Source: Geotalea uraniireducens Rf4 (GTDB lineage Bacteria; Desulfobacterota; Desulfuromonadia; Geobacterales; Geobacteraceae). Taken from it: a stretch of 32,000 bases of DNA. The stretch is taken from contig NC_009483.1 in assembly GCF_000016745.1 (NCBI RefSeq), positions 2,550,001-2,582,000 of the forward strand, in the 5' to 3' direction. Each line of letters opens with the position of its first letter. Position 1 is the first letter of the stretch. Made by a program: the position numbers and the translations under genes. Under the pieces are notes generated by a model that made no database searches, was not told where the DNA came from, and saw only the letters and a list, made by a program, of their open reading frames with translations. Below are positions 18,156 to 31,214 of the stretch, in pieces.

Positions 18156-19040
18156 ATGCAGATGCTCTGGCTTCCCATAACATTGCTGTGCGCCTTTTCC
18201 CTTGCCACCAGCGACGCCCTTACCAAAAAGGCACTCGCTGCCCGGTACAACGAATATCTCGTTGCCTGGCTCCGGCTCCTCCTGATGCTCCCTCCCCTCA
18301 CCGTCCTTCTGCTGTCGACCCCAAAGCCAACCCTCGGACCGGAGTTCCTGCTGACGATTCTAATTGCCCTCCCCCTCGAACTGGTGGCTCTAATCCTCTA
18401 CATCAAGGCGCTCAAACTCTCGCCACTCGGGTTGACGGTGCCGTTCCTGGCGCTGACACCACTCTTTCTACTGGTAATACCCTACCTTCTTCTGGGGGAG
18501 CGGATCTCCTTAACCGGCGGGATCGGCGTCCTCTTCATCGCCGCGGGAAGCTATGTCCTCAACCTGAGCAGACACGGCAACGGTATTCTGTCTCCTTTCC
18601 GGGCGATCCTCAAGGAGCGAGGATCTCTCTGCATGATCGGGGTCGCCGTCCTCTACAGCTTCACCGCCACCCTGAGCAAAAAGGCGATCTCCGTCTCGTC
18701 CCCGCTCTTTTTCGCCAGCTTTTATCCGATGCTGGTTTTTCTCTGCTTGACGCCTGTGGCACTCTGGAAAGGGCGAAACGAATTGAGGTTCATGAAACAA
18801 ACGGGGATTATGCAGGCAGCCCTGTTTCCGGCGTTCTTCAGTTTTGTGGAAACCATCACCGGAGTAGTTGCCTTGAGTCTGACCAACGTTGCGTACATGA
18901 TCGCGGTAAAACGCCTGAGCCTGCTTATGGGGATACTGTACGGATACTTTCTGTTTCGGGAGGATGGTCTGGGAGAGCGTCTTGCGGGGGGAATATTGAT
19001 GATTGCGGGAGTCGCGCTGATCGTGATCGGGGGAAGATAA
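18156..19040 (+). CDS. EamA/DMT-family transporter
   Basis: 294-aa protein with about 10 hydrophobic segments and two EamA-like halves. The start is uncertain (ATG at 18156 or 18162; no clear Shine-Dalgarno sequence). Confidence 0.8.
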   Translation: MQMLWLPITLLCAFSLATSDALTKKALAARYNEYLVAWLRLLLMLPPLTVLLLSTPKPTLGPEFLLTILIALPLELVALILYIKALKLSPLGLTVPFLALTPLFLLVIPYLLLGERISLTGGIGVLFIAAGSYVLNLSRHGNGILSPFRAILKERGSLCMIGVAVLYSFTATLSKKAISVSSPLFFASFYPMLVFLCLTPVALWKGRNELRFMKQTGIMQAALFPAFFSFVETITGVVALSLTNVAYMIAVKRLSLLMGILYGYFLFREDGLGERLAGGILMIAGVALIVIGGR

Positions 19041-19061
19041 AACCGCAGCTCCCAAGGGTTC

Positions 19062-19370
19062 CTACAGGAGTTGCACCTCGCTGACCCGAACGATCAGCAT
19101 CTCCTGGCGATAGCGAGCAGCCAGTTCCTCCCGGTAGCCCCGCCACCAGTCCTGGTCCAGTTGCTCCGTCATCACTTCATAGATGACGATATCATCATGT
19201 ACCGTCGTGGTACTGGTTTCCTTCCATAACCCCTTTGCAGGAGAGCGGACATAGGTGGTAAGACCGCCGAAACGTTCCGTCAGTTCGTCCCGCACCAGTT
19301 CAAATTCATGCTGAGGAAAAGGCTTCCCCTCATTATCGTAGAGCGGCAACAGTATCTGGATAAGATGCAT
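19062..19370 (-). CDS. Hypothetical protein
   Basis: Start placed at the internal ATG (MHLIQILLPLYDNEGKPF...), preceded by GAAGGAAA. The longer track ORF (to 19493) has no Shine-Dalgarno sequence. No family recognised. Confidence 0.55.
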   Translation of the reverse strand: MHLIQILLPLYDNEGKPFPQHEFELVRDELTERFGGLTTYVRSPAKGLWKETSTTTVHDDIVIYEVMTEQLDQDWWRGYREELAARYRQEMLIVRVSEVQLL

Positions 19371-19540
19371 GATTTCCTTCTGTTCGTGCATGCAATGGGT
19401 ATGGAACATTGTACCGCATTTTGCGGAGATTTTAGTCGGATCGCCTTCCAAAAGTGAGAAATGGAACAGAAATGGCCTGCGAGTGCAGGCCATTCAATGA
19501 AAGCATGGAATTCAAACAGGTGCGAAAACCTGCCGATATT

Positions 19541-19660
19541 TCACAGGGGGCCGGTTGATTTTTTACTGAAGAGCATGATGTACGCTAAAAAAGTGATACA
19601 GAGAGCGCCGATAAAAACAGCTGCAATCTCGAGCCCAAACTTGATAGTTGAAAATTCCAT
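19541..19660 (-). CDS. Possible 39-aa single-pass membrane peptide
   Basis: MEFSTIKFGLEIAAVFIGALCITFLAYIMLFSKKSTGPL, with a strong GGAGGG Shine-Dalgarno sequence 7 nt upstream. It is too short for the ORF track. Confidence 0.4.
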   Translation of the reverse strand: MEFSTIKFGLEIAAVFIGALCITFLAYIMLFSKKSTGPL

Positions 19661-19852
19661 GGTCAATCCCTCCAAGGTGTTAGTGATTACTGCGGGTGAC
19701 CATTTAGATAACATCATCATGTTACAGGGGGATTATGGAATGGCAAGGATCTTATGACATGTCGTAAGCTTGATTATAGCAGTAGATAGACAAGAGCGTC
19801 CCACCACGAATTTATGAAATACGCATCTTCTTCGGTTTGTTTAAACAAATAT

Positions 19853-20122
19853 TTATTGTTCCGTATTCTCCAAAAAGATAACTTCGTTGCTCCCTTCCGG
19901 ATGAGGCTTTACATGGACATGCAGAAACGCCTCGTAAGAAGGATAAATACCCATTGTGCTATACGCGTCAATGCCCTTGTCCTTTACATTCAGGTCCGTC
20001 CGCCAACAGGTTACTACCTGTCCGGTGTGAAAGATTACCCCATCGAGAACTCTTCCGGTGCCGCTGATGCCCGAGGGGTCGATTTTCCTAACAAGGGTGA
20101 AAAGCTTCGGATTTGCTTCCAT
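19853..20122 (-). CDS. 89-aa protein of unknown function, last gene of the CBASS operon
   Basis: GGAAGGTG Shine-Dalgarno sequence; the start is 11 nt after the Cap5 stop. It contains the motif DPSGISGTGRVLDGVIFHTGQVVTCW. Confidence 0.7.
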   Translation of the reverse strand: MEANPKLFTLVRKIDPSGISGTGRVLDGVIFHTGQVVTCWRTDLNVKDKGIDAYSTMGIYPSYEAFLHVHVKPHPEGSNEVIFLENTEQ

Positions 20123-20133
20123 GTGTCACCTTC

Positions 20134-21318
20134 CTATTCTACAGAACTTCTGTTTATGGCGAGTGCGCAAGTATATCCACCAGCGTCATTGATAAAGTCG
20201 TAGACCATAATTGGTGGGTCGCTTTTCGGTAAGAGCAAACGCCCACATTCAATAGCAACGGGAGCTGGCACTGCGCAAAACAGATGGATTGGCTTATTGT
20301 GCCCATTGTTTGTGCGCAAAATTTCCAGCAAACGCCTATACTCATAGCTGAACGTCTTGAGTTTTGATCGCTTAGAAAGAAAATCACGGCTAGGATTAGC
20401 CACCGATAATTCATAGCAATTATATTCATCTCCCATAACCGCAGAGACAGTAGACTTGTTAACACTGCTGCTTATGGAGATAATTACAGCTGTCTTTGCA
20501 TCAGGGTCGTGTTCCTCCGGGCCACACAAACTATAATACTGTTCAGAAAGTTCTTCTGGACTTTCCTTCCATTTCCAGTCATCGGTTTTAAGATGTCTTT
20601 GGTAGAGGTCAACAGTCCTTTTATCACCAATAAGATTACCTAAAAACACCAGCAGTGGAATTGGTGCCAATGCAAAAACAGAGATATGATTGAATTCTCT
20701 CCTTTTGACGCCTTGGTTAAAAATCTCATCGAACTTTGTTTTGATAATTCGAGATAAGAATGGCCAGTATCCTTCACCTGTTTCTTTTTCCGGTATATCT
20801 GACAAATCGATTATGTACGCATTTTCGTCAGCTGGGTACTTAGGTAGAATTGCCTGAAAAGCATGCGCCTGGTCGATATGGAAAGTTTTTCCGGCAATTG
20901 GCGCTTGGAAAATAAGGACATGGGTCTTTGAGTCTTCTTGTATTCCAGTAAGCACCTTGATTCTTTTTTCGTGCTCTGTTTTGTATTCACGAAGCAGTGC
21001 AACTGGATACTTCGGTACGTGTTCAATGCTGTCAATAATTTTACCGTGTTTTCTGCATGTAAGCATTAGATTCGAAATATCAGTTGCAAGGCGAAAAGAG
21101 TCAACGGGGTTCCCTCTTGGGCCGTTCGGTTCATAGGCGATAATATGAGAAATGACCGCCAGGTTGTCGTGCAGTTTGGTTAAATCATCAGAATATAAAA
21201 TGTCATTACAGCCGCGGAATTGGCAACGTCCGGCTGCTCGTGCCCAAAGCTGATTGACAACTTTGTCGGGAATTTTTATGCGACCTGCTTTCTTCTTTTT
21301 TTCTGGCACTTCTGCCAT
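20134..21318 (-). CDS. cap5: CBASS effector Cap5: HNH endonuclease fused to a SAVED sensor domain
   Basis: N-terminal HNH-type region (CQFRGCN..., ISHIIAYEPNGPRGN, NLMLTCRKHGKIID). The roughly 270-aa C-terminal region has SAVED-like features (HLFCAVPAPVAIECGRLLLPKSDPPIMVYDF). GGAGGG Shine-Dalgarno sequence, 10 nt after the Cap3 stop. Confidence 0.85.
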   Translation of the reverse strand: MAEVPEKKKKAGRIKIPDKVVNQLWARAAGRCQFRGCNDILYSDDLTKLHDNLAVISHIIAYEPNGPRGNPVDSFRLATDISNLMLTCRKHGKIIDSIEHVPKYPVALLREYKTEHEKRIKVLTGIQEDSKTHVLIFQAPIAGKTFHIDQAHAFQAILPKYPADENAYIIDLSDIPEKETGEGYWPFLSRIIKTKFDEIFNQGVKRREFNHISVFALAPIPLLVFLGNLIGDKRTVDLYQRHLKTDDWKWKESPEELSEQYYSLCGPEEHDPDAKTAVIISISSSVNKSTVSAVMGDEYNCYELSVANPSRDFLSKRSKLKTFSYEYRRLLEILRTNNGHNKPIHLFCAVPAPVAIECGRLLLPKSDPPIMVYDFINDAGGYTCALAINRSSVE

Positions 21319-21328
21319 AAACCCTCCA

Positions 21329-21823
21329 TTACAATAATTTCAGCATTGTAATCGTTCTCGAACGTCTGTGCCCCTCCCACATCCGCATCTCAGAGGTGCC
21401 GACAATCAGAAAGAAGAGACTATCGCTGTCGACTATGTCATTTTTCAACTTCCTTTTCCAGTTGGTATCGTCGATGCTTGACGGCGACGGATGTGGTTCC
21501 GGGTGGGTATGCCACTCGCCCAGGTAGGTGCAGGTATGATTGCTGGCCTCCCATGCCCTATCGATTACCTGCTGATGCGCCCTCTTCTTCCGGAAGAAAG
21601 TTGTCCTCGTGGCCCTGTCTCCAGGCATCGGGAAAGAAATCTTGTCAATCACGACATCCTGCGAGTCGATAATGTAGCGCCCCAACATTACGCCGCCGCC
21701 TTCCGGTTTATGCCGGTCATTTTGGATATATCCATGGATGGATGCTATCACCTCGACCGGAAGTTTGATTCGGCCGCCGTTTGGCCGGGCATATACCAGG
21801 TTATCACACAGTTTCAGGTTCAT
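21329..21823 (-). CDS. cap3: CBASS Cap3, JAB/JAMM-family isopeptidase
   Basis: JAMM motif in EASNHTCTYLGEWHTHPEPHPSPSSIDD (E...HxH...S..D). The start is uncertain: ATG at 21823 (20-nt overlap with cap2) or TTG at 21865. Confidence 0.85.
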   Translation of the reverse strand: MNLKLCDNLVYARPNGGRIKLPVEVIASIHGYIQNDRHKPEGGGVMLGRYIIDSQDVVIDKISFPMPGDRATRTTFFRKKRAHQQVIDRAWEASNHTCTYLGEWHTHPEPHPSPSSIDDTNWKRKLKNDIVDSDSLFFLIVGTSEMRMWEGHRRSRTITMLKLL

Positions 21824-23534
21824 GGCAGACAGGGCATTCTTCAAAGTGGTAATTAGCTTCCTCAATAAAATGGTCGTTCGAGGCGGAATACCTCGACGAC
21901 AGTTTCTTGCCGTTCTTCAGGAACTCCGTAGCATCGCCCCGCCATGAACGAATCAGGTTTGTTTTGATGTCGCCATTCAGTGTGGCGATAGCCAGCCTCG
22001 TAGCGAGTTCGGCAGTCTTCATGGCGTCGAGCGACCCGAACGGCGTAAAGACATTTCGGCAGCCATTAATGTTTTTGGCGAAAGACTGACCTTTTTCGGC
22101 AAATGATGCTCGGCACCGTAAATCCCCATCCTCGGGCTGATACAGACATTTAAGGCACCCCTTCTTGGAGCCGTTCCTCGTAAGAAGCGCATGCCCGCCA
22201 ATGCCATATGGCTCAAGCCAGGTGAAGATGACCGGGGGTGAATCGATGCCATGAATGTACTTGCTAAAGACCAGTTCTACCGTGACATTCCCAAGGGCGG
22301 ATATTATGAGGTCGAAATCCCCTATTTTGATTTTTCCCGATTCCAGCGCATTCTCAAGAGACAAGGGGATTGGAAGCACCTCGACAAATGGCAGTCTTCC
22401 CTCGATGTCGTCTTTGATGCCATCGACCTTATTCTTGCCGACATGTTTCTTCCCGAGAACATGACGGAACAGATTCTCATGAGTCAGCACATCCTTGTCA
22501 AGGACGGTCAATCGCAAGATGCCGGCACGAGTCAGTTCGTTGGCGATGAATCCACCAACGGAGCCGCATCCAAGCAGCAGTACACGTTTTTCGCGCAATG
22601 CCAGGTTGCTTCCGCCCCGGGGGAGAAGATACTCCTTGTCTCTCCGGGTTATGGCCAAAGGGATTATTTCACTTGCCCTCCCTGCCTCGTGCAATGGGTG
22701 CTCATGATTGACCCCCTTGAACTTGATTCCAAAGAGCGTTTCACCATCGGAGGCCCTGGGTAGGCTGAGAAGAATCACCTCTTCGTGATGAGGTTTTGTT
22801 AAGAGCGACAGCAGTTCGGATTTCTGGTCTGCCCGCAGATTGTCGAAGACTATCTTGCGGATATCGAGGAGTTCCCAGAACTTGTCAGGGTGAGGCGGAG
22901 TGATGACTGTCCCAATGGGCAACGGAATGTAGATGGCAGGATAATGTTTCCAAGGTACATGGGGTTTAATCTTGCGGTATTTCTTGTAACTCTGCTCATC
23001 GTCTGCAAGGTACCCTGCCCCACCTTTAACTTTATAAAGATGGATTCTTTTGACCTGGTCGCCAGGCGAGACAATAGAGGTAAAGAACTTCACCTTTTTG
23101 AGGCGGTCCCAGTACGCTCCGAACTCGTCAAGGAAGTCTTGATGGTTCTTCCCAGAAATGCCATCTACGACAACCTGTATGGCCCTTGAAAGTGCCTCCT
23201 GGGCTATTCCGGCAACATCGTCGAAATCGAGGACAGAGCCATCCTCCTGCGCGTAACATATATACCCGTCTGTTTCAACATGAGGGAGGATGCCAAACGA
23301 ATCCCATTGCGCCAGAAAGATATACGGAAGAGATAACGGGAAGGACTTCTTGACCCCAAAATAGAAATCTACCGGCACCCCATTCAACTCAATTACCAGC
23401 TTGTAGCTACGGCAAACAAAGCGGTCCTTGGCCCACGGTTCTGCCAGGCGCTTTGGGTGGAGTTCCGCAACAGATTTAACCAGTAGGCATGTTTCAAGTG
23501 CCTCTTTCAACAAGGATTCATCATAATTAAGCAT
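21804..23534 (-). CDS. cap2: CBASS Cap2, E2-like / E1-like (ThiF) fusion
   Basis: N-terminal E2-like domain with PHVETDGYICY (candidate catalytic Cys). Central ThiF/MoeB Rossmann LLLGCGSVGGFIANELTRAGILRLTVLDKD. C-terminal CxxC pairs (GCLKCL, ECPVCH). The start is placed at the ATG at 23534, which overlaps the CD-NTase stop by 8 nt (ATGCTTAA). Confidence 0.88.
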   Translation of the reverse strand: MLNYDESLLKEALETCLLVKSVAELHPKRLAEPWAKDRFVCRSYKLVIELNGVPVDFYFGVKKSFPLSLPYIFLAQWDSFGILPHVETDGYICYAQEDGSVLDFDDVAGIAQEALSRAIQVVVDGISGKNHQDFLDEFGAYWDRLKKVKFFTSIVSPGDQVKRIHLYKVKGGAGYLADDEQSYKKYRKIKPHVPWKHYPAIYIPLPIGTVITPPHPDKFWELLDIRKIVFDNLRADQKSELLSLLTKPHHEEVILLSLPRASDGETLFGIKFKGVNHEHPLHEAGRASEIIPLAITRRDKEYLLPRGGSNLALREKRVLLLGCGSVGGFIANELTRAGILRLTVLDKDVLTHENLFRHVLGKKHVGKNKVDGIKDDIEGRLPFVEVLPIPLSLENALESGKIKIGDFDLIISALGNVTVELVFSKYIHGIDSPPVIFTWLEPYGIGGHALLTRNGSKKGCLKCLYQPEDGDLRCRASFAEKGQSFAKNINGCRNVFTPFGSLDAMKTAELATRLAIATLNGDIKTNLIRSWRGDATEFLKNGKKLSSRYSASNDHFIEEANYHFEECPVCHEPETV

Positions 23535-24567
23535 GTGCAGAGGCACTGGCCGTGGATATGGCGCGGCTCTTTTTTTCGCCGGTGTCAGGTTTTTCCGGAA
23601 CAGGGAAATCGTCCCCAAAGACCTTTTTCAGGGTTTCACATGCCTTTACCGGGTCCACTTCGCTGGCGGCCGAGTCGAGGGCCTCCAGCAGACTGCCCAG
23701 TTTCTCCTTCAAAGTTGCCATCTGATTGTCGGTCATCTTCTCGAACAACTCGGAATAGGGTTCAACTGGGAGGTACACTCTCAGTCGGTCGCCGAAATTG
23801 TTCAGCATCCCATTGACAACACCCCTTGTTGCCTGCAGGTCGTTGTATTTGTACGTGCTCGCCACGATGTCCATTAAGGTCTTGTTGGGGGTGAACCAAT
23901 TGTATGCCGCGATGGTCAGGCCTATGCCGATTGGCGCGGCGTTTCCGTTGGAAGAGAAGTTGTAATCCTTCCACCGCTTCAAATACCGTATTACCATGAC
24001 GAATTGTTTCTTGTCGTCTCCCGCATGTTTGTCCCCGACCGTATCCGCCAACTTTTGTGGTTCGGAGATTTCCCAACATTTGTTATCGTCGGACGAATTC
24101 AGTTTCCCTTTCGCTAGGTATTTCTTGCCGTCTGAGTTACACGACTCGTCGGAATATACAGCCAGGTCCACATGATAAACCGGCTCGTCTCCTTTCTGGT
24201 AGAAAACGGTAACGCATGGCCTTCTCATGTCGACTTTCTTGGTGTGTCCGTTCAAGGCGTCATATACCCATTCCTTGACCTCCACCGGGTCCAGATAGTT
24301 GTCTTTCGAGACGTTGAAGGACACCCCGACATCGATATCGTAGTCGCTGTCCAGCGGGATAATGCCGGTACCCATTTTATAGCTCCCCTGGTCAAAAGTC
24401 TGGTACGTGGGAACCGGTTCGTCCTTCTCCTCGAAAATAGTCTTCAGACGTGACTTCAGTTTATCAAGGACGATGTCTCGTTTTTCCCTCAGGATCTGGT
24501 TTTCATCGAACTTCTTGAGCTTTATTGCATCATGAAAGGTCTCAAAATATTTTTGAACATCAGCCAT
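23527..24567 (-). CDS. CBASS cGAS/DncV-like nucleotidyltransferase (CD-NTase, SMODS domain)
   Basis: Pol-beta NTase signature: GSYKMGTGI ... DYDIDVGV ... HVDLAVY (GS, DxD, third Asp). 346 aa. Ala-terminated flexible tail ...RAISTASASAHA. GGGAGG Shine-Dalgarno sequence. Confidence 0.88.
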   Translation of the reverse strand: MADVQKYFETFHDAIKLKKFDENQILREKRDIVLDKLKSRLKTIFEEKDEPVPTYQTFDQGSYKMGTGIIPLDSDYDIDVGVSFNVSKDNYLDPVEVKEWVYDALNGHTKKVDMRRPCVTVFYQKGDEPVYHVDLAVYSDESCNSDGKKYLAKGKLNSSDDNKCWEISEPQKLADTVGDKHAGDDKKQFVMVIRYLKRWKDYNFSSNGNAAPIGIGLTIAAYNWFTPNKTLMDIVASTYKYNDLQATRGVVNGMLNNFGDRLRVYLPVEPYSELFEKMTDNQMATLKEKLGSLLEALDSAASEVDPVKACETLKKVFGDDFPVPEKPDTGEKKSRAISTASASAHA

Positions 24568-24593
24568 ATTGCCTCCCTGAATAACGAAGTGAT

Positions 24594-24848
24594 CTACTTC
24601 TTCCCTCTTCCTTGCCTCTGCGCCAATGCACTCCCCGCCGCGGTCTTTGAATCTTTATTTGTCCGTCCGTCACTCAATACCTTTGAGGCCGCTGTTGCCG
24701 CCTTTGCAGATGTAACCTTCGCCGGTGCCTTGGTCTGAGATAATGCACTACCAGCCGCTGTTTTCGATTTTGGAGCAGTACTGCCGCTTGTCAGGGTTTT
24801 TGATGCACTTGTTGCAGCCTTTGAACCTGTCACTTTTGCCTTTGTCAT
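24594..24848 (-). CDS. 84-aa Lys/Ala/Ser/Thr-rich protein made of two ~36-aa repeats (unknown function)
   Basis: Strong AAGGAGAA Shine-Dalgarno sequence before the ATG at 24848. The stop lies 27 nt before the CD-NTase start. The two repeats (AKVTGSKAATSASKTLTSGSTAPKSKTAAGSALSQT and AKVTSAKAATAASKVLSDGRTNKDSKTAAGSALAQR) are conserved as protein but diverged at synonymous sites. Confidence 0.75.
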   Translation of the reverse strand: MTKAKVTGSKAATSASKTLTSGSTAPKSKTAAGSALSQTKAPAKVTSAKAATAASKVLSDGRTNKDSKTAAGSALAQRQGRGKK

Positions 24849-24892
24849 GATGTTCTCCTTGAGCAATATTTTTCGGCATTTCACAAACCCAA

Positions 24893-25408
24893 CTACCTGA
24901 AATTCCTCGCCGACCCGAAAAAATTCGCTATCGCAATTGTCATCGCCGGTTTACTCACCTGAAAGATCCCCGCCAGTTTGTCCGGATTCTTCAAATCCGA
25001 CTGATACTTCTTCAACTGTTCCACCGGTATAAGCAGTTCCGAAGCGAAGGCATCCGCTTCCTGTTCCTTAGGCGGTTTGGCATTTTCCGGCATATCCTCA
25101 CCATATTCCCGCGCCACCTCGGCATCGTAAAACTCCCGCTTGTCGTGGTTGAGAAAGATGTGACCCAACTCGTGAGCCAGGGTGAAACGGGCACGAACGA
25201 AAGGTTTTGCCTTGTTCAACATGGCAACCCGAGTTCCGTCTAGTTCCAGAATCATCCCATCAAGTTCATCCGGATCGTCGAGCTCGACATATTCCAGGCC
25301 GAGGCTCTCACAGATTACTTGCAGGTTCGTGGGAACCTCGTTGATCTTGTGCTTTTTCAGAATCTTTCGCGCCATCTCTCTGGCATAGGTGTAGTTTGCC
25401 GCGATCAT
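24893..25408 (-). CDS. ImmA/IrrE-family zinc metallopeptidase (CapP-like)
   Basis: HEXXH in TLAHELGHIFLNH, with a downstream EQEADAFASELLIP motif typical of COG2856/ImmA. An ATGA overlap joins it to the upstream HTH gene. Confidence 0.88.
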   Translation of the reverse strand: MIAANYTYAREMARKILKKHKINEVPTNLQVICESLGLEYVELDDPDELDGMILELDGTRVAMLNKAKPFVRARFTLAHELGHIFLNHDKREFYDAEVAREYGEDMPENAKPPKEQEADAFASELLIPVEQLKKYQSDLKNPDKLAGIFQVSKPAMTIAIANFFGSARNFR

Positions 25409-26292
25409 TGTCCGCCTCCAGCCTGATCCAGGCGCTCCAGGGCAGCTTTCACCCTTGCCAGATAGTCATCGCTTACCAGCTTCTGCTCCTGAGGGCTCCC
25501 CTTTTTCTGCGCCAGTTTTTCAAGGACCTTGTTGACACTGCTTGACTGTACCGCCGCTCCCTTGGCGTCGTAACAGGTAGAACGGGCATGCACCATGGTA
25601 ACGGAGTTTTTCATGTCAAAGATGGAGAGGGTTGCATTCAGCAGCCGCTTCAGGTTGTCGAGAGTAAGTCCGAAAAACCGGACGATTCTGGCCGTAACGT
25701 CGGGAGAAATCTTTTCCGGCGGAAAGTCGTTATTCTCAATCTTTACCAGGTCCGCCGGTTCGATTTCCAGAGAAGCGCAGACCACATCGGGCAAGAGTCT
25801 GGTGGCGGCAATCACTTCCCTGATGTATTCGCCAAAGGAGATATATTGCTCCAGCAGGGATGTATTGGCCTTTTGTATTGCGGTGGTCCGCTCATTCTGC
25901 AACAGGTTGACGCGGGCATCGGGCACCTTTTCGATGAGGTTATGCACCAACAGGTTCATTGACGGCGTGATCGCCACCTCTCCCCGTTCCCAGCGGCCGT
26001 AGGTATTGCGCCCGATCTGCAGCAGATCGCAAATCTCGTCCAGCTTCATATCAAGAACGCGGCGCAACGTTTTCAGTTGCTCCGGCGTCAGGAGCGGCTT
26101 CAGCCCGAACTCCATGGCGATCCTCTTCTTGTCGATCTCCAGGCTCTGGGCATGGGTAAAGGTCACCTCCCCGCAGGCCGGGCAGATTTCGCAATCAAGG
26201 TCGTGTAAGACGTGACTCTCGTCGTTGACGGTTATGGTAAGTTCGGTTTTGGCAGCGCGGTATTCGGCCTCAAAACAGTTCGTGCAGATCAT
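25405..26292 (-). CDS. MqsA-like zinc-ribbon plus XRE HTH protein with a second HTH-like domain and C-terminal extension
   Basis: N-terminal CxxC...CxxC ribbon (CTNCFEAEY...CEICPACGEVTF). HTH LTPEQLKTLRRVLDMKLDEICDLLQIGRNTYGRWERGEVAITPSMNLLV, as in MqsA/YgiT. A second XRE-like segment FGEYIREVIAATRLLPDVVCASLEIEPADLVKIENNDF. 295 aa, whereas I recall about 130 aa for MqsA. Confidence 0.8.
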   Translation of the reverse strand: MICTNCFEAEYRAAKTELTITVNDESHVLHDLDCEICPACGEVTFTHAQSLEIDKKRIAMEFGLKPLLTPEQLKTLRRVLDMKLDEICDLLQIGRNTYGRWERGEVAITPSMNLLVHNLIEKVPDARVNLLQNERTTAIQKANTSLLEQYISFGEYIREVIAATRLLPDVVCASLEIEPADLVKIENNDFPPEKISPDVTARIVRFFGLTLDNLKRLLNATLSIFDMKNSVTMVHARSTCYDAKGAAVQSSSVNKVLEKLAQKKGSPQEQKLVSDDYLARVKAALERLDQAGGGQ

Positions 26293-26303
26293 GGTCGTTT
26301 CCT

Positions 26304-26642
26304 CTATTTGATCGTGAAAGAGGTCAGCTTCCAGCCGATGAATTCACCGGTCTGCGGGTGGTAGTTGCTGCACACCTTGCAGTAAACCGCCACCCCGGTG
26401 GTGCTGGTCCCCTGTATCACATAGTGGGTGTTGTGCGGATTGCTTGCCCGCTCGCTCGTTGCCGGCATGGCCTTCTCAATAGTGTCGGCAGCCATGATGA
26501 CCTTTTCCACATCGGCCTCGTAGAGCTTGGCGCGATCCATGTCGTCCATGCAATCCCTGGTTTTACGTATCTTCCCCACCAGATAGGCATCCTTAATTCT
26601 CTTGAGGACAAGATCATCCAGTTCCGTTCCAATTGGTGTCAT
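26304..26642 (-). CDS. MqsR-like toxin-fold protein (tentative)
   Basis: 112 aa from the ATG at 26642. Hand alignment to E. coli MqsR recalled from memory: GKIRKTRDC vs GQVRTTRSA, VAVYCKV vs QVYLKIT, WKLTSFTIK vs LIVSFKEK. The gene order is toxin-first, as in mqsRA. Start could also be 26660. Confidence 0.55.
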   Translation of the reverse strand: MTPIGTELDDLVLKRIKDAYLVGKIRKTRDCMDDMDRAKLYEADVEKVIMAADTIEKAMPATSERASNPHNTHYVIQGTSTTGVAVYCKVCSNYHPQTGEFIGWKLTSFTIK

Positions 26643-26712
26643 ACATACCCCAGACAACATACTGCACCAATTGGTGTTATTATTAATATACCAATTGGTG
26701 TTTTGATGTCAA
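26627..26712 (-). promoter_or_regulatory. Sigma70-type promoter with three palindromic operators for the nine-gene operon
   Basis: On the minus strand: TTGACA (26712-26707), 16-nt spacer, TATATT. The 11-mer ACACCAATTGG occurs three times (plus-strand CCAATTGGTGT at 26691-26701, 26667-26677 and 26629-26639). The full palindrome CACCAATTGGTG is at 26665-26676. Confidence 0.75.
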
Positions 26713-26845
26713 TTAATTTCTCATTCCATGATTTTTGCTGCTGATTTCACCGAGCTACAACTCTCTGTCATCGCAGATAGCAAGGACAAAGCTATCAGCT
26801 CAGCTATATTCGTAATTTCGAAAACATGCAACAATACCCCAGAAA

Positions 26846-26889
26846 TCAAAAAAGCCGCCAATCAGCATATCCCTGACCCGGCGGCTTTT
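26846..26889. terminator. Bidirectional terminator-like hairpin upstream of the island promoter
   Basis: Stem AAGCCGCC (26852-26859) / GGCGGCTT (26880-26887), with inner TCAG/CTGA pairing. It is flanked by an A-run and a T-run. Confidence 0.55.
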
Positions 26890-27088
26890 ATCTACACGCA
26901 GTGCATCTATTCCACTTTTTATCACCCATCCAAAAAAACTCCGCATAACGCAATAAAATCAGCTTTCTATTTACACCCTGGATGCACTCGGTGTCAACCT
27001 TTAGAAGGGAAAAAGGGTCTGCGCTTGACAAGAGGCAAATGCTTTCTTTAACAATCCATTAATAACCTACACCCCATAAAAGACTAAT

Positions 27089-27185
27089 TTAACAGGGATG
27101 AACAGGATGAACGGGATGACACCACTCAAGCTAAATTCACTCCCTGTTAAGTCAGATTTGGGATTCTGTCAGAGGGCGTCATCCC
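27089..27185. repeat. Nested inverted repeats plus three tandem 9-mers
   Basis: TTAACAGGGA (27089-27098) / TCCCTGTTAA (27141-27150). Tandem GGGATGAAC-AGGATGAAC-GGGATGAC(A) at 27095-27121. GGGATGAC (27113-27120) / GTCATCCC (27178-27185). Confidence 0.6.
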
Positions 27186-27256
27186 TCGTCACTGGACAAG
27201 TCTCCAGCCGGCCTCGAAAGATCAGCCTTCCAAGCCATGTCTCCTCTTACCCACCA

Positions 27257-27531: not shown

Positions 27532-27750
27532 TTACGCCGCCTTTTTCGCCTTGGCTCTAGCGATCCGGACGAGTGACCGCAAGGCATCGTTCACCGATTT
27601 CGAATCGGGGAAAAAATCGGCGACATCCTTTTCAAGCAGGACCAGATTCGTCCCCTTCGCATACTCTCCCGCATATTTTCCTTTCACCCCCGTTTTCATT
27701 GCGGAGAGATCATATTCGGGACGCACATCATCATTACTCGTTTTCTTCAT
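27532..27750 (-). CDS. brnA: BrnA-type antitoxin
   Basis: 72 aa. MKK...RPEYDLSAMKTGVKGKYA...GTNLVLLEKDVADFFPDSKSVNDALRSL matches the antitoxin family usually paired with BrnT/DUF497. 17-nt overlap with the upstream toxin frame. Confidence 0.75.
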   Translation of the reverse strand: MKKTSNDDVRPEYDLSAMKTGVKGKYAGEYAKGTNLVLLEKDVADFFPDSKSVNDALRSLVRIARAKAKKAA

Positions 27751-28008
27751 AGTAGTTCCTCTCGGCGCGAGTCGCCTTTCTTGCAGAGATTATTCTGATA
27801 GCCCCGGCCCGGTCGGCATGTGCAAAGAGCAGCACCCGTCCTGCCTCCGACATGCCGATGGTAATGAACCGTTCCTCATCCTCAGAATGGTCAGGATCAG
27901 GAAATGTCAACGACAAGGGATCACCAAAAACAGAAGCAGCTTCAGCGAAGGAAACGCCGTGTTCTTCAGGTTGCTCACAGCCTTTCTCTTATCCCAGGCG
28001 AATTGCAT
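27734..28008 (-). pseudogene. brnT: BrnT (DUF497) toxin gene with a 1-nt frameshift
   Basis: The ATG at 28008 gives MQFAWDKRKAVSNLK, after which the frame derails. The remainder, (E)HGVSFAEAASVFGDPLSLTFPDPDHSEDEERFITIGMSEAGRVLLFAHADRAGAIRIISARKATRAERNYY, is in another frame. The junction AAGAACAC (about 27964) appears to lack one base relative to the expected K-K-H-G. Confidence 0.7.

Positions 28009-31139: not shown

Positions 31140-31214
<75 letters not shown>

Follow-up and report, generated by a model that had tools for sequence, protein, structure and literature searches.

In the 32,000-nucleotide (nt) stretch of Geotalea uraniireducens Rf4 DNA analyzed here (contig NC_009483.1, positions 2,550,001 to 2,582,000; the window), a type II cyclic oligonucleotide-based antiphage signaling system (CBASS) is headed by a three-gene cassette that encodes a small protein remotely related to MqsR, a putative repressor of the MqsA type, and a minimal M78 metallopeptidase. 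Judging from sequence comparisons, we hold with moderate confidence that the cassette is a "controller of adjacent pathway," portable and autoregulated, in which an MqsRA-like pair is combined with the peptidase. Its layout is what one would expect of a repressor switch gated by a protease, as in ImmR/ImmA, DdrO/IrrE, or CapH/CapP, and the cassette forms the 5' end of its own operon.

Nine minus-strand genes lie head to tail behind one promoter, beginning with the gene for the 112-amino-acid (112-aa) protein and running into the CBASS. Four of the operon proteins are identical to ABQ26398 and ABQ26400 to ABQ26402 of G. uraniireducens Rf4. The first-pass annotation, made from the DNA letters alone, had described the first three open reading frames (ORFs), and both their coordinates and their sequence features were correct, with all three on the minus strand. 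The genes are as follows.

26304-26642, minus strand: gene 1, 112-aa remote MqsR-like protein, candidate toxin or coregulator (ABQ26402)
25405-26292, minus strand: gene 2, 295-aa putative MqsA-like repressor (ABQ26401)
24893-25408, minus strand: gene 3, 171-aa M78 (ImmA/IrrE/CapP-type) metallopeptidase without a GAF domain (ABQ26400)
24594-24848, minus strand: gene 4, 84-aa basic low-complexity (KR) protein, optional fourth cassette gene (phrog_5079)
23527-24567, minus strand: gene 5, CD-NTase, the CBASS cyclase (ABQ26398; Pfam, PADLOC)
21804-23618, minus strand: gene 6, Cap2, E2 plus E1/ThiF (Pfam, PADLOC)
21329-21865, minus strand: gene 7, Cap3, JAB (Pfam, PADLOC)
20134-21318, minus strand: gene 8, HNH-SAVED endonuclease effector, Cap5 type (Pfam, PADLOC)
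19853-20122, minus strand: gene 9, 89-aa ORF directly after the HNH-SAVED effector (phrog_7499)

With a CD-NTase, Cap2 (E1/E2), Cap3 (JAB), and a cyclic-nucleotide-sensing effector, the downstream genes constitute a type II CBASS, and the first-pass annotation had likewise named CBASS; the PADLOC E values were 1.2e-127 for the cyclase, 7.6e-170 for E1-E2, 8.6e-53 for JAB, and 7.2e-117 for SAVED-HNH. The start chosen for the 112-aa protein is the one common to its homologs, and an ATG at 26660 (118 aa) is an upstream alternative. Genes 1 and 2 are separated by 11 nt with a GAGGA ribosome-binding site, while the repressor stop and the peptidase start overlap as ATGA at 25405 to 25408, the overlap on which the first-pass annotation had called these two genes translationally coupled. 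A further 45 nt separate the peptidase gene from the KR gene, and 26 nt separate the KR gene from the CD-NTase gene. Housekeeping genes occupy both flanks, and the GC content is lower across 19 to 28 kb.

The 295-aa protein is truly related to MqsA. Over residues 1 to 125 it matches the Pfam family MqsA_antitoxin (PF15731) with 47.8 bits (E value of 1.9e-12; cutoff of 30), and it matches NCBIfam TIGR03830 with 63.2 bits (cutoff of 61.8). Cys 3, 6, 37, and 40 are invariant in 45 homologs, and in Escherichia coli MqsA the Zn ligands are cysteines at these same positions (PMC2791442). The AlphaFold model, with a predicted local distance difference test (pLDDT) score of 84, has E. coli MqsA (3GN5) as its top Foldseek match (E value of 3.8e-6). 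The MqsA hallmark reported in the first-pass annotation is thus borne out, as is the long extension: the protein exceeds canonical two-domain MqsA (about 131 aa) by about 160 C-terminal residues. Its parts are the following.

Residues 1-46: Zn ribbon
Residues 70-122: helix-turn-helix (HTH) domain HTH1
Residues 153-207: helical XRE-like domain
Tail: a long helix, then a disordered segment with a conserved VHARST motif (about 234-249), then a confidently modeled C-terminal helix (275-292)

A second XRE-like HTH had also been claimed, and here the picture is mixed. The model has a helical bundle at residues 153 to 207, but the sequence signal is marginal: the HTH_19 match of 24.7 bits is below the cutoff, the isolated C-terminal half reached an E value of 0.05 against HTH_19, in 2 of 11 members, and a profile of residues 131 to 295 matched no PDB or Pfam family. 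Further along, the segment of residues 234 to 249 has the consensus V-H-A-R-S-T-x-Y-D-A-K-G, conserved and modeled with low confidence; its H-x-R motif falls within a predicted-disordered segment (pLDDT below 50). The motif is present in all 34 distinct peptidase-linked repressors. Of 12 repressors without a peptidase, 3 have clearly lost its Arg, and in one more the motif itself could not be found. CapP cleaves CapH at F82/R83, and CapH R83A is uncleavable (10.1101/2022.04.27.489752). By analogy, the H-x-R motif fits the Arg-P1' cleavage sites reported for CapH and is a candidate cut site. IrrE likewise cuts DdrO before an Arg.

The 171-aa protein belongs to Peptidase_M78 (Pfam E value of 5e-16) and matches the PADLOC capP model (E value of 5e-28). 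The motifs HELGH and E-x-EAD-x-FA-x-ELL-x-P are conserved in 23 homologs from Desulfuromonadales, Syntrophales, Thermodesulfovibrionia, and Ignavibacteria. From these motifs the protein is predicted to be an intact ImmA/IrrE/CapP-type peptidase, in line with the HEXXH ImmA/IrrE peptidase named in the first-pass annotation. Because the match covers only positions 5 to 152 of the 242 in the capP profile, the linker and GAF domains, which form the groove for single-stranded DNA (ssDNA) in CapP, are missing. No cysteine of the cysteine-switch type is conserved between HELGH and the third ligand in the 23 homologs. The PADLOC RmrA models match the peptidase domain only.

Upstream of the small gene, the DNA has the features expected of an autoregulated promoter of the MqsA type, namely palindromic operators within the promoter of the operon itself, here two or three predicted binding sites.

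26685-26712, minus strand: sigma-70 promoter, TTGACA, 16 nt, TATATT, with TG (extended -10)
26690-26699, palindrome without strand: putative operator O1, exact ACCAATTGGT in the promoter spacer, abutting the -10
26666-26675, palindrome without strand: putative operator O2, ACCAATTGGT, 24 nt from O1, around the expected transcription start
26628-26637, without strand: operator-like O3, one mismatch to ACCAATTGGT, overlapping small-gene codons 2 to 5

The promoter is the best promoter-like site between 19000 and 27200, with 11 of 12 matches, and its TTGAC and TATA blocks are conserved across aligned homologous loci. From Desulfuromonadales to Ignavibacteria, ACCAATTGGT recurs at about -57 and about -33 from the ATG of the small gene, usually twice, and the O1-O2 spacing of 24 to 25 nt is conserved among related loci. 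Exact copies at conserved positions were found in most of 44 nonredundant loci and in most of 55 metagenome loci; elsewhere in those related loci (2- to 20-kb stretches), ACCAATTGGT did not occur. An O3-like copy at +5 is present in a subset of the loci. The O3 stretch encodes P-I-G-T, which is conserved in the small-protein family, and it may therefore be under both coding and operator constraint. Between the cassette and the CBASS there is no further operator and no convincing terminator, and the scan of 19000 to 27200 gave no separate strong promoter between the peptidase gene and the CBASS. Sister loci encode MqsA forms of 133 to 134 aa without the extension and keep the same operator, which points to HTH1 as the operator reader; by this comparison HTH1 alone presumably suffices for operator binding. 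On the other side of the promoter, at 26850 to 26889, a GC-rich hairpin (AAAAGCCGCC...GGCGGCTTTT) is followed by a T-run on the minus strand and is likely a terminator, shielding the cassette promoter against transcription coming from upstream.

We gathered about 115 related loci by exact-protein look-ups, a genome scan with a repressor profile, and a metagenome scan with a small-protein profile. Of the 52 loci that were found by way of the small gene, 51 have an MqsA-like gene directly behind it, and the lone exception has a disrupted Zn-ribbon region. The obligate core is the small gene together with the Zn-ribbon/HTH1 part of the repressor. Loci with a full-length repressor comprise 21 with a peptidase gene and 10 without (about two-thirds with), and there are 7 short forms in addition. 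Where both are present, the repressor and peptidase genes overlap or lie a few nucleotides apart in most loci. Mean pairwise identities for the peptidase, the small protein, and the N- and C-terminal halves of the repressor are 62%, 64%, 68%, and 47%, respectively. By these identities, the peptidase appears to be accessory but maintained, evolving at the rate of its partners.

The cassette heads at least eight different defense cargoes. Beside the type II CBASS, which is co-oriented and directly downstream in the window, these are a patatin plus CD-NTase CBASS (L027), SIR2-HerA (L025, L032, and L035), an Old nuclease (L036, in which the peptidase is a 95-aa remnant), ThsB plus Olokun (L008), TIR proteins (L001), E2-E1-JAB operons (L010, L012, L024, L038, and L039), DUF6791-ThiF (L047 and L051), and a phospholipase C/nuclease/TIR set (L011). 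In the Desulfuromonadales loci the defense genes lie next to the peptidase gene on the same strand, with gaps mostly of a few tens of nucleotides and up to a few hundred. The same cassette at the head of many defense operons is what a regulatory switch predicts. The suggestion in the first-pass annotation that the three genes form a unit heading the CBASS operon stands, given a conserved unit with a strong promoter and conserved palindromes.

Other arrangements were also seen. L004 and L020 have two genes (117 aa and 302 to 319 aa), with a diverged tail and no peptidase; a DUF3750 protein comes next, and the neighborhood includes a P-type ATPase and not defense genes. L052, L054, L056, and L057 have the same operator with a short MqsA (133 to 134 aa) or an otherwise truncated one (191 aa, L052); the small gene is kept in L052, L054, and L056 and was not detected in L057. 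Their cargo consists of DUF1016/YhcG PD-(D/E)XK nucleases, GmrSD, a WYL-WCX (CapW-like) regulator, or a 1,128-aa SMEK-NACHT-TPR protein. We also considered a mobile-element immunity module in the ImmR/ImmA sense, of phage or plasmid origin. None of the viral contigs searched encodes the small protein, tblastn gave no match of the repressor in PLSDB plasmids, and it gave no match of the KR protein in phages; such an origin is therefore unlikely, and the idea was rejected.

Of the three cassette proteins, the small one has the least certain identity. The 112-aa sequence had no Pfam or NCBIfam match at an E value of 0.1 or below and none in PADLOC or PHROGs, and a profile of its family matched none of the PDB sequences, MqsR (3HI2_B) included. 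In the AlphaFold model (pLDDT of 90), the three helices and five strands are arranged in the order of MqsR, for which the published secondary structure was used (PMC2791442). Foldseek against PDB and BFVD returned nothing at an E value of 1e-3 or below, and 3HI2_B was outside the top 50; the match with the best probability was the toxin-antitoxin (TA) toxin 7vd7_A (probability of 0.84; template modeling scores of 0.47/0.54), an entry that we could not identify from the literature. Direct membership in MqsR (PF15723 or NCBIfam) was rejected, since the family models, PADLOC, PHROGs, the PDB profile search, and Foldseek gave no significant match. An exhaustive hidden Markov model (HMM) search of 1.8 billion proteins found only 28 representatives of the small protein, which marks the family as narrow. 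Intermediates of about 105 aa from this search match MqsR_toxin and DUF4258 weakly (E values of 0.002 to 0.07). When the family was combined with its distant relatives, hhalign aligned it to MqsR with 82.5% probability (E value of 9.9e-6, 72 columns), compared with only 10% for the narrow family alone. The alignment pairs G-K-I-R-K-T with the MqsA-binding strand of MqsR, G-Q-V-R-T-T. We therefore take the 112-aa protein to be only a remote relative within the MqsR superfamily, as these alignments suggest, and not a member of the MqsR family.

The first-pass annotation had called this ORF MqsR-like and had asked for a check of its fold. The toxin-first order, the remote hhalign match, and the order of helices and strands speak for that view; the missing family-model and PDB matches, the lack of a significant Foldseek match, and the loss of Q68 and K96 speak against it. 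In the alignment, K57 corresponds to MqsR K56, and Y87/K89 correspond to Y81/K83. Two of the four MqsR toxicity residues (K56, Q68, Y81, and K96) are thus kept, while Q68 and K96 have no equivalent, the position of K96 being E or T at 110 in the family; with two of the four missing, toxicity of the 112-aa protein is doubtful. The family has its own (nearly) invariant cluster, C31 with C88-x-x-C91-S-N-Y-H95, which is absent from MqsR. From its sequence, this cluster (C31/C88/C91/H95) could be a metal-binding or redox-sensing site. The exhaustive search also returned P0263 (175 aa), in which a Zn-ribbon-like N terminus (CPDC...) is joined to a distant MqsR-like domain, possibly a toxin-antitoxin fusion.

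In the mechanism that we propose for the controller, the MqsA-like protein would bind the palindromes through HTH1, as a dimer or a higher oligomer, and would keep the whole operon (repressor, peptidase, and CBASS) at a low level. Upon a stress or infection signal, the peptidase would cleave the repressor within the conserved, disordered part of the C-terminal tail, the likeliest position being in front of the invariant Arg (residue 238) of V-H-A-R-S-T, near H236-A237-R238. The cut would inactivate or destabilize the repressor, and the defense operon would be induced. The MqsR-like protein would bind the Zn-ribbon domain, as MqsR binds MqsA, and two roles are conceivable for it: that of a toxin set free by the same cut, or that of a sensor or modulator adjusting repression or peptidase activity. 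As HTH1 alone may bind the operator, cleavage of the tail would act through the loss of higher-order oligomerization or through degradation. The input signal must be read differently from that of CapP and IrrE, because the peptidase does not have their GAF domain and ssDNA groove. A bolder version is that the repressor doubles as the antitoxin of an MqsR-type toxin and that a single cut by a GAF-less peptidase, triggered by a signal other than direct ssDNA binding, both frees a growth-arresting RNase and induces whatever defense lies downstream (CBASS, SIR2-HerA, Thoeris-like TIR, Old, or ubiquitin-like systems), which would make the cassette a fourth Cap class; we put this forward tentatively, as rather less probable than not. 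Taken as a whole, the interpretation of the first-pass annotation is partly supported, with cleavage by the peptidase and the simultaneous freeing of the toxin-like protein as its hypothetical parts.

Several points weigh against the cassette as a switch for its neighbors. The peptidase is absent or truncated (L016, L031, and L036) in about one-third of the full-length cassettes, and some of these still precede defense genes (L033 and L083). In L044, L045, L049, and L050, from Syntrophales, Desulfobacterales, and related bacteria, the three genes have no co-oriented cargo, so the module can exist alone. The short MqsA forms presumably bind through HTH1, to judge from their operators, which leaves DNA release by a tail cut unexplained. 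CapH/CapP is divergent from its cargo, while the cassette is codirectional. Derepression would also raise the synthesis of the repressor, and internal promoters may be present within the coding regions.

The cassette could instead be a self-contained tripartite TA or abortive-infection system that clusters with defense genes without regulating them, either RosmerTA-like with the HTH and peptidase split or the toxin-Xre-COG2856 system of Makarova. The cargo-free loci, the obligate pair in 51 of 52 loci with its toxin-first order as in mqsRA, and the match of the RmrA models to the peptidase would all suit it; a three-component COG2856-Xre-toxin system has been predicted (PMC2701414), and RosmerTA is a validated defense system. 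We nevertheless consider it unlikely. In Desulfuromonadales the genes next to the peptidase are varied known defense genes, closely spaced and on the same strand, no separate strong promoter or terminator lies between peptidase and CBASS, and the toxicity of the small protein, with two of the four MqsR residues gone, is doubtful. Another proposal is that the small protein is a nontoxic, MqsR-derived sensor or adaptor replacing the missing GAF/ssDNA-sensing module, one that would bring the repressor to the peptidase or, upon binding a signal, dislodge it from DNA. This would account for a 171-aa peptidase without GAF (positions 5 to 152 of the 242 in the capP profile), for the lack of equivalents of Q68 and K96, for the C31/C88-x-x-C91-S-N-Y-H95 cluster as a candidate metal or redox site, and for a small protein that evolves as slowly as the peptidase and the N-terminal half of the repressor. 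However, short MqsA forms having no peptidase are likewise found paired with the small gene, whose function is therefore independent of the peptidase, and the alignment of K57 and Y87/K89 with K56 and Y81/K83 is compatible with RNase activity; this proposal strikes us as less likely still.

Least probable, to the point that we give it little credence, is that the MqsRA-like pair is a selfish addiction module stabilizing the defense islet, with the peptidase as an unrelated or decaying passenger. Peptidase genes are indeed frequently lost or truncated (L016/L041, L031, and L036; 10 of the 31 full-length loci), and two-gene versions sit beside DUF3750 in nondefense contexts (L004 and L020). A passenger, however, would hardly agree with catalytic motifs conserved across four lineages at a mean identity (62%) similar to that of the partners, with repressor and peptidase genes that overlap or lie a few nucleotides apart in most loci, or with an H-x-R motif that is invariant wherever the peptidase is present.

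Among characterized systems, CapH/CapP (Lau et al. 2022; Calloji et al. 2026) shares with the cassette an M78 HExxH peptidase beside an XRE-type repressor, an association with diverse immune operons, and, in the C-terminal region of the repressor, a conserved Arg preceded by a candidate cleavage site. The repressors differ: CapH has about 107 aa, whereas the protein here has 295 aa and is of the MqsA type, having an additional helical domain as well as a Zn ribbon. CapP consists of a peptidase, an HTH-like linker, and a GAF domain with an ssDNA groove, and the peptidase here has none of the last three; nor does it have a conserved cysteine-switch Cys, the switch loop being present in most but not all CapP. 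The cassette is a codirectional 5' part of the cargo operon and has a third, MqsR-like gene, in contrast to the divergent CapH/CapP. With E. coli MqsR/MqsA the cassette has in common the toxin-first order, an antitoxin with the Cys3/6/37/40 Zn ribbon and an XRE HTH, two palindromes with ACC...GGT half-sites in its own promoter, and a small partner with the same order of elements and a G-x-[VI]-R-x-T strand aligning with the MqsA-binding strand of MqsR. It departs from that pair in the small protein, which is missed by the MqsR Pfam and NCBIfam models and is without Q68 and K96, and in the roughly 160 extra MqsA residues, the translationally coupled peptidase gene, and the defense cargo downstream.

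With ImmR/ImmA of ICEBs1 and DdrO/IrrE of Deinococcus, the likeness lies in an XRE-family repressor and in the logic of a peptidase cleaving a repressor, which we propose here; ImmA is also close in size (about 170 aa) and has no GAF domain. Neither integration/excision genes nor a DNA repair regulon is controlled by the cassette, the architecture of its repressor is another one, and it has the additional MqsR-like partner. RosmerTA (RmrT/RmrA) and the system of Makarova et al. 2009 likewise have a toxin-like gene upstream of HTH and M78 functions in a defense-island context, and RmrA models match the peptidase. The RosmerTA antitoxin is a single HTH-M78 fusion, whereas HTH protein and peptidase are separate genes here; the cassette differs from both systems in its MqsA-type HTH protein and in the variable defense operon that it probably regulates. 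PanA antitoxins (ZBD-HTH-Panacea; MqsR:PanA and NetFlax) resemble the repressor as Zn-ribbon plus HTH antitoxins with a C-terminal module, possibly a sensor, but the extension of the repressor matches neither Panacea nor any Pfam or PDB family, and the peptidase linked to it is a separate protein.

The first-pass annotation implied more novelty than the idea has. The prediction of a three-component toxin-Xre-COG2856 system dates from 2009 (PMC2701414), RosmerTA and CapH/CapP have been validated experimentally, TA co-option of regulators is documented for CapK/CapS, and PanA is a precedent for MqsA carrying additional C-terminal modules. The G. uraniireducens system is not mentioned in the CapH/CapP paper, in one of its supplements, or in the wider literature, and we found no literature description of an MqsR-like/MqsA-like/M78 cassette heading defense operons. 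Three families of dedicated regulators of antiphage operons have been described, CapW/BrxR, CapH plus CapP, and CapK plus CapS, all of which read DNA damage through ssDNA (PMC13373217). The cassette would add a regulator family with an MqsA scaffold for the repressor, a peptidase from which the established module for sensing ssDNA has been lost, and an additional partner resembling a toxin. If the controller reading is right, type II TA autoregulation would be tied directly to the transcriptional control of CBASS, SIR2-HerA, TIR, and ubiquitin-like systems, and the question would arise of what signal a minimal M78 peptidase reads; if a single cut also had the dual release described above, one switch would give a two-layer response. 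The module is experimentally tractable because it is compact, has a defined promoter and operator, and comes with many natural cargo swaps.

Two further small genes belong to the operon. The 84-aa protein (24594 to 24848, minus strand) is very basic and of low complexity, with two SKTAAGSALSQ-like repeats, and homologs directly follow the peptidase gene in at least seven loci with differing cargo (the window, L001, L008, L027, L032, L035, and L074). The 89-aa ORF at 19853 to 20122 (minus strand) has no Pfam match; it matches the phage family phrog_7499 (E value of 1.8e-13) and may be an extra gene of the CBASS operon.

An Rfam scan of the window found nothing besides a tRNA-Gly(GCC) gene at 31140 to 31214 (minus strand), which lies about 3 kb from the low-GC islet (19 to 28 kb) holding the cassette and the CBASS, and the window showed no integrase. 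Another TA pair, a decayed one, lies just upstream of the cassette: at 27532 to 27916 (minus strand), a fragment of a BrnT toxin that has lost its N terminus (Pfam BrnT_toxin positions 29 to 77 of 77; E value of 1.7e-14) overlaps a 72-aa BrnA-like ORF.

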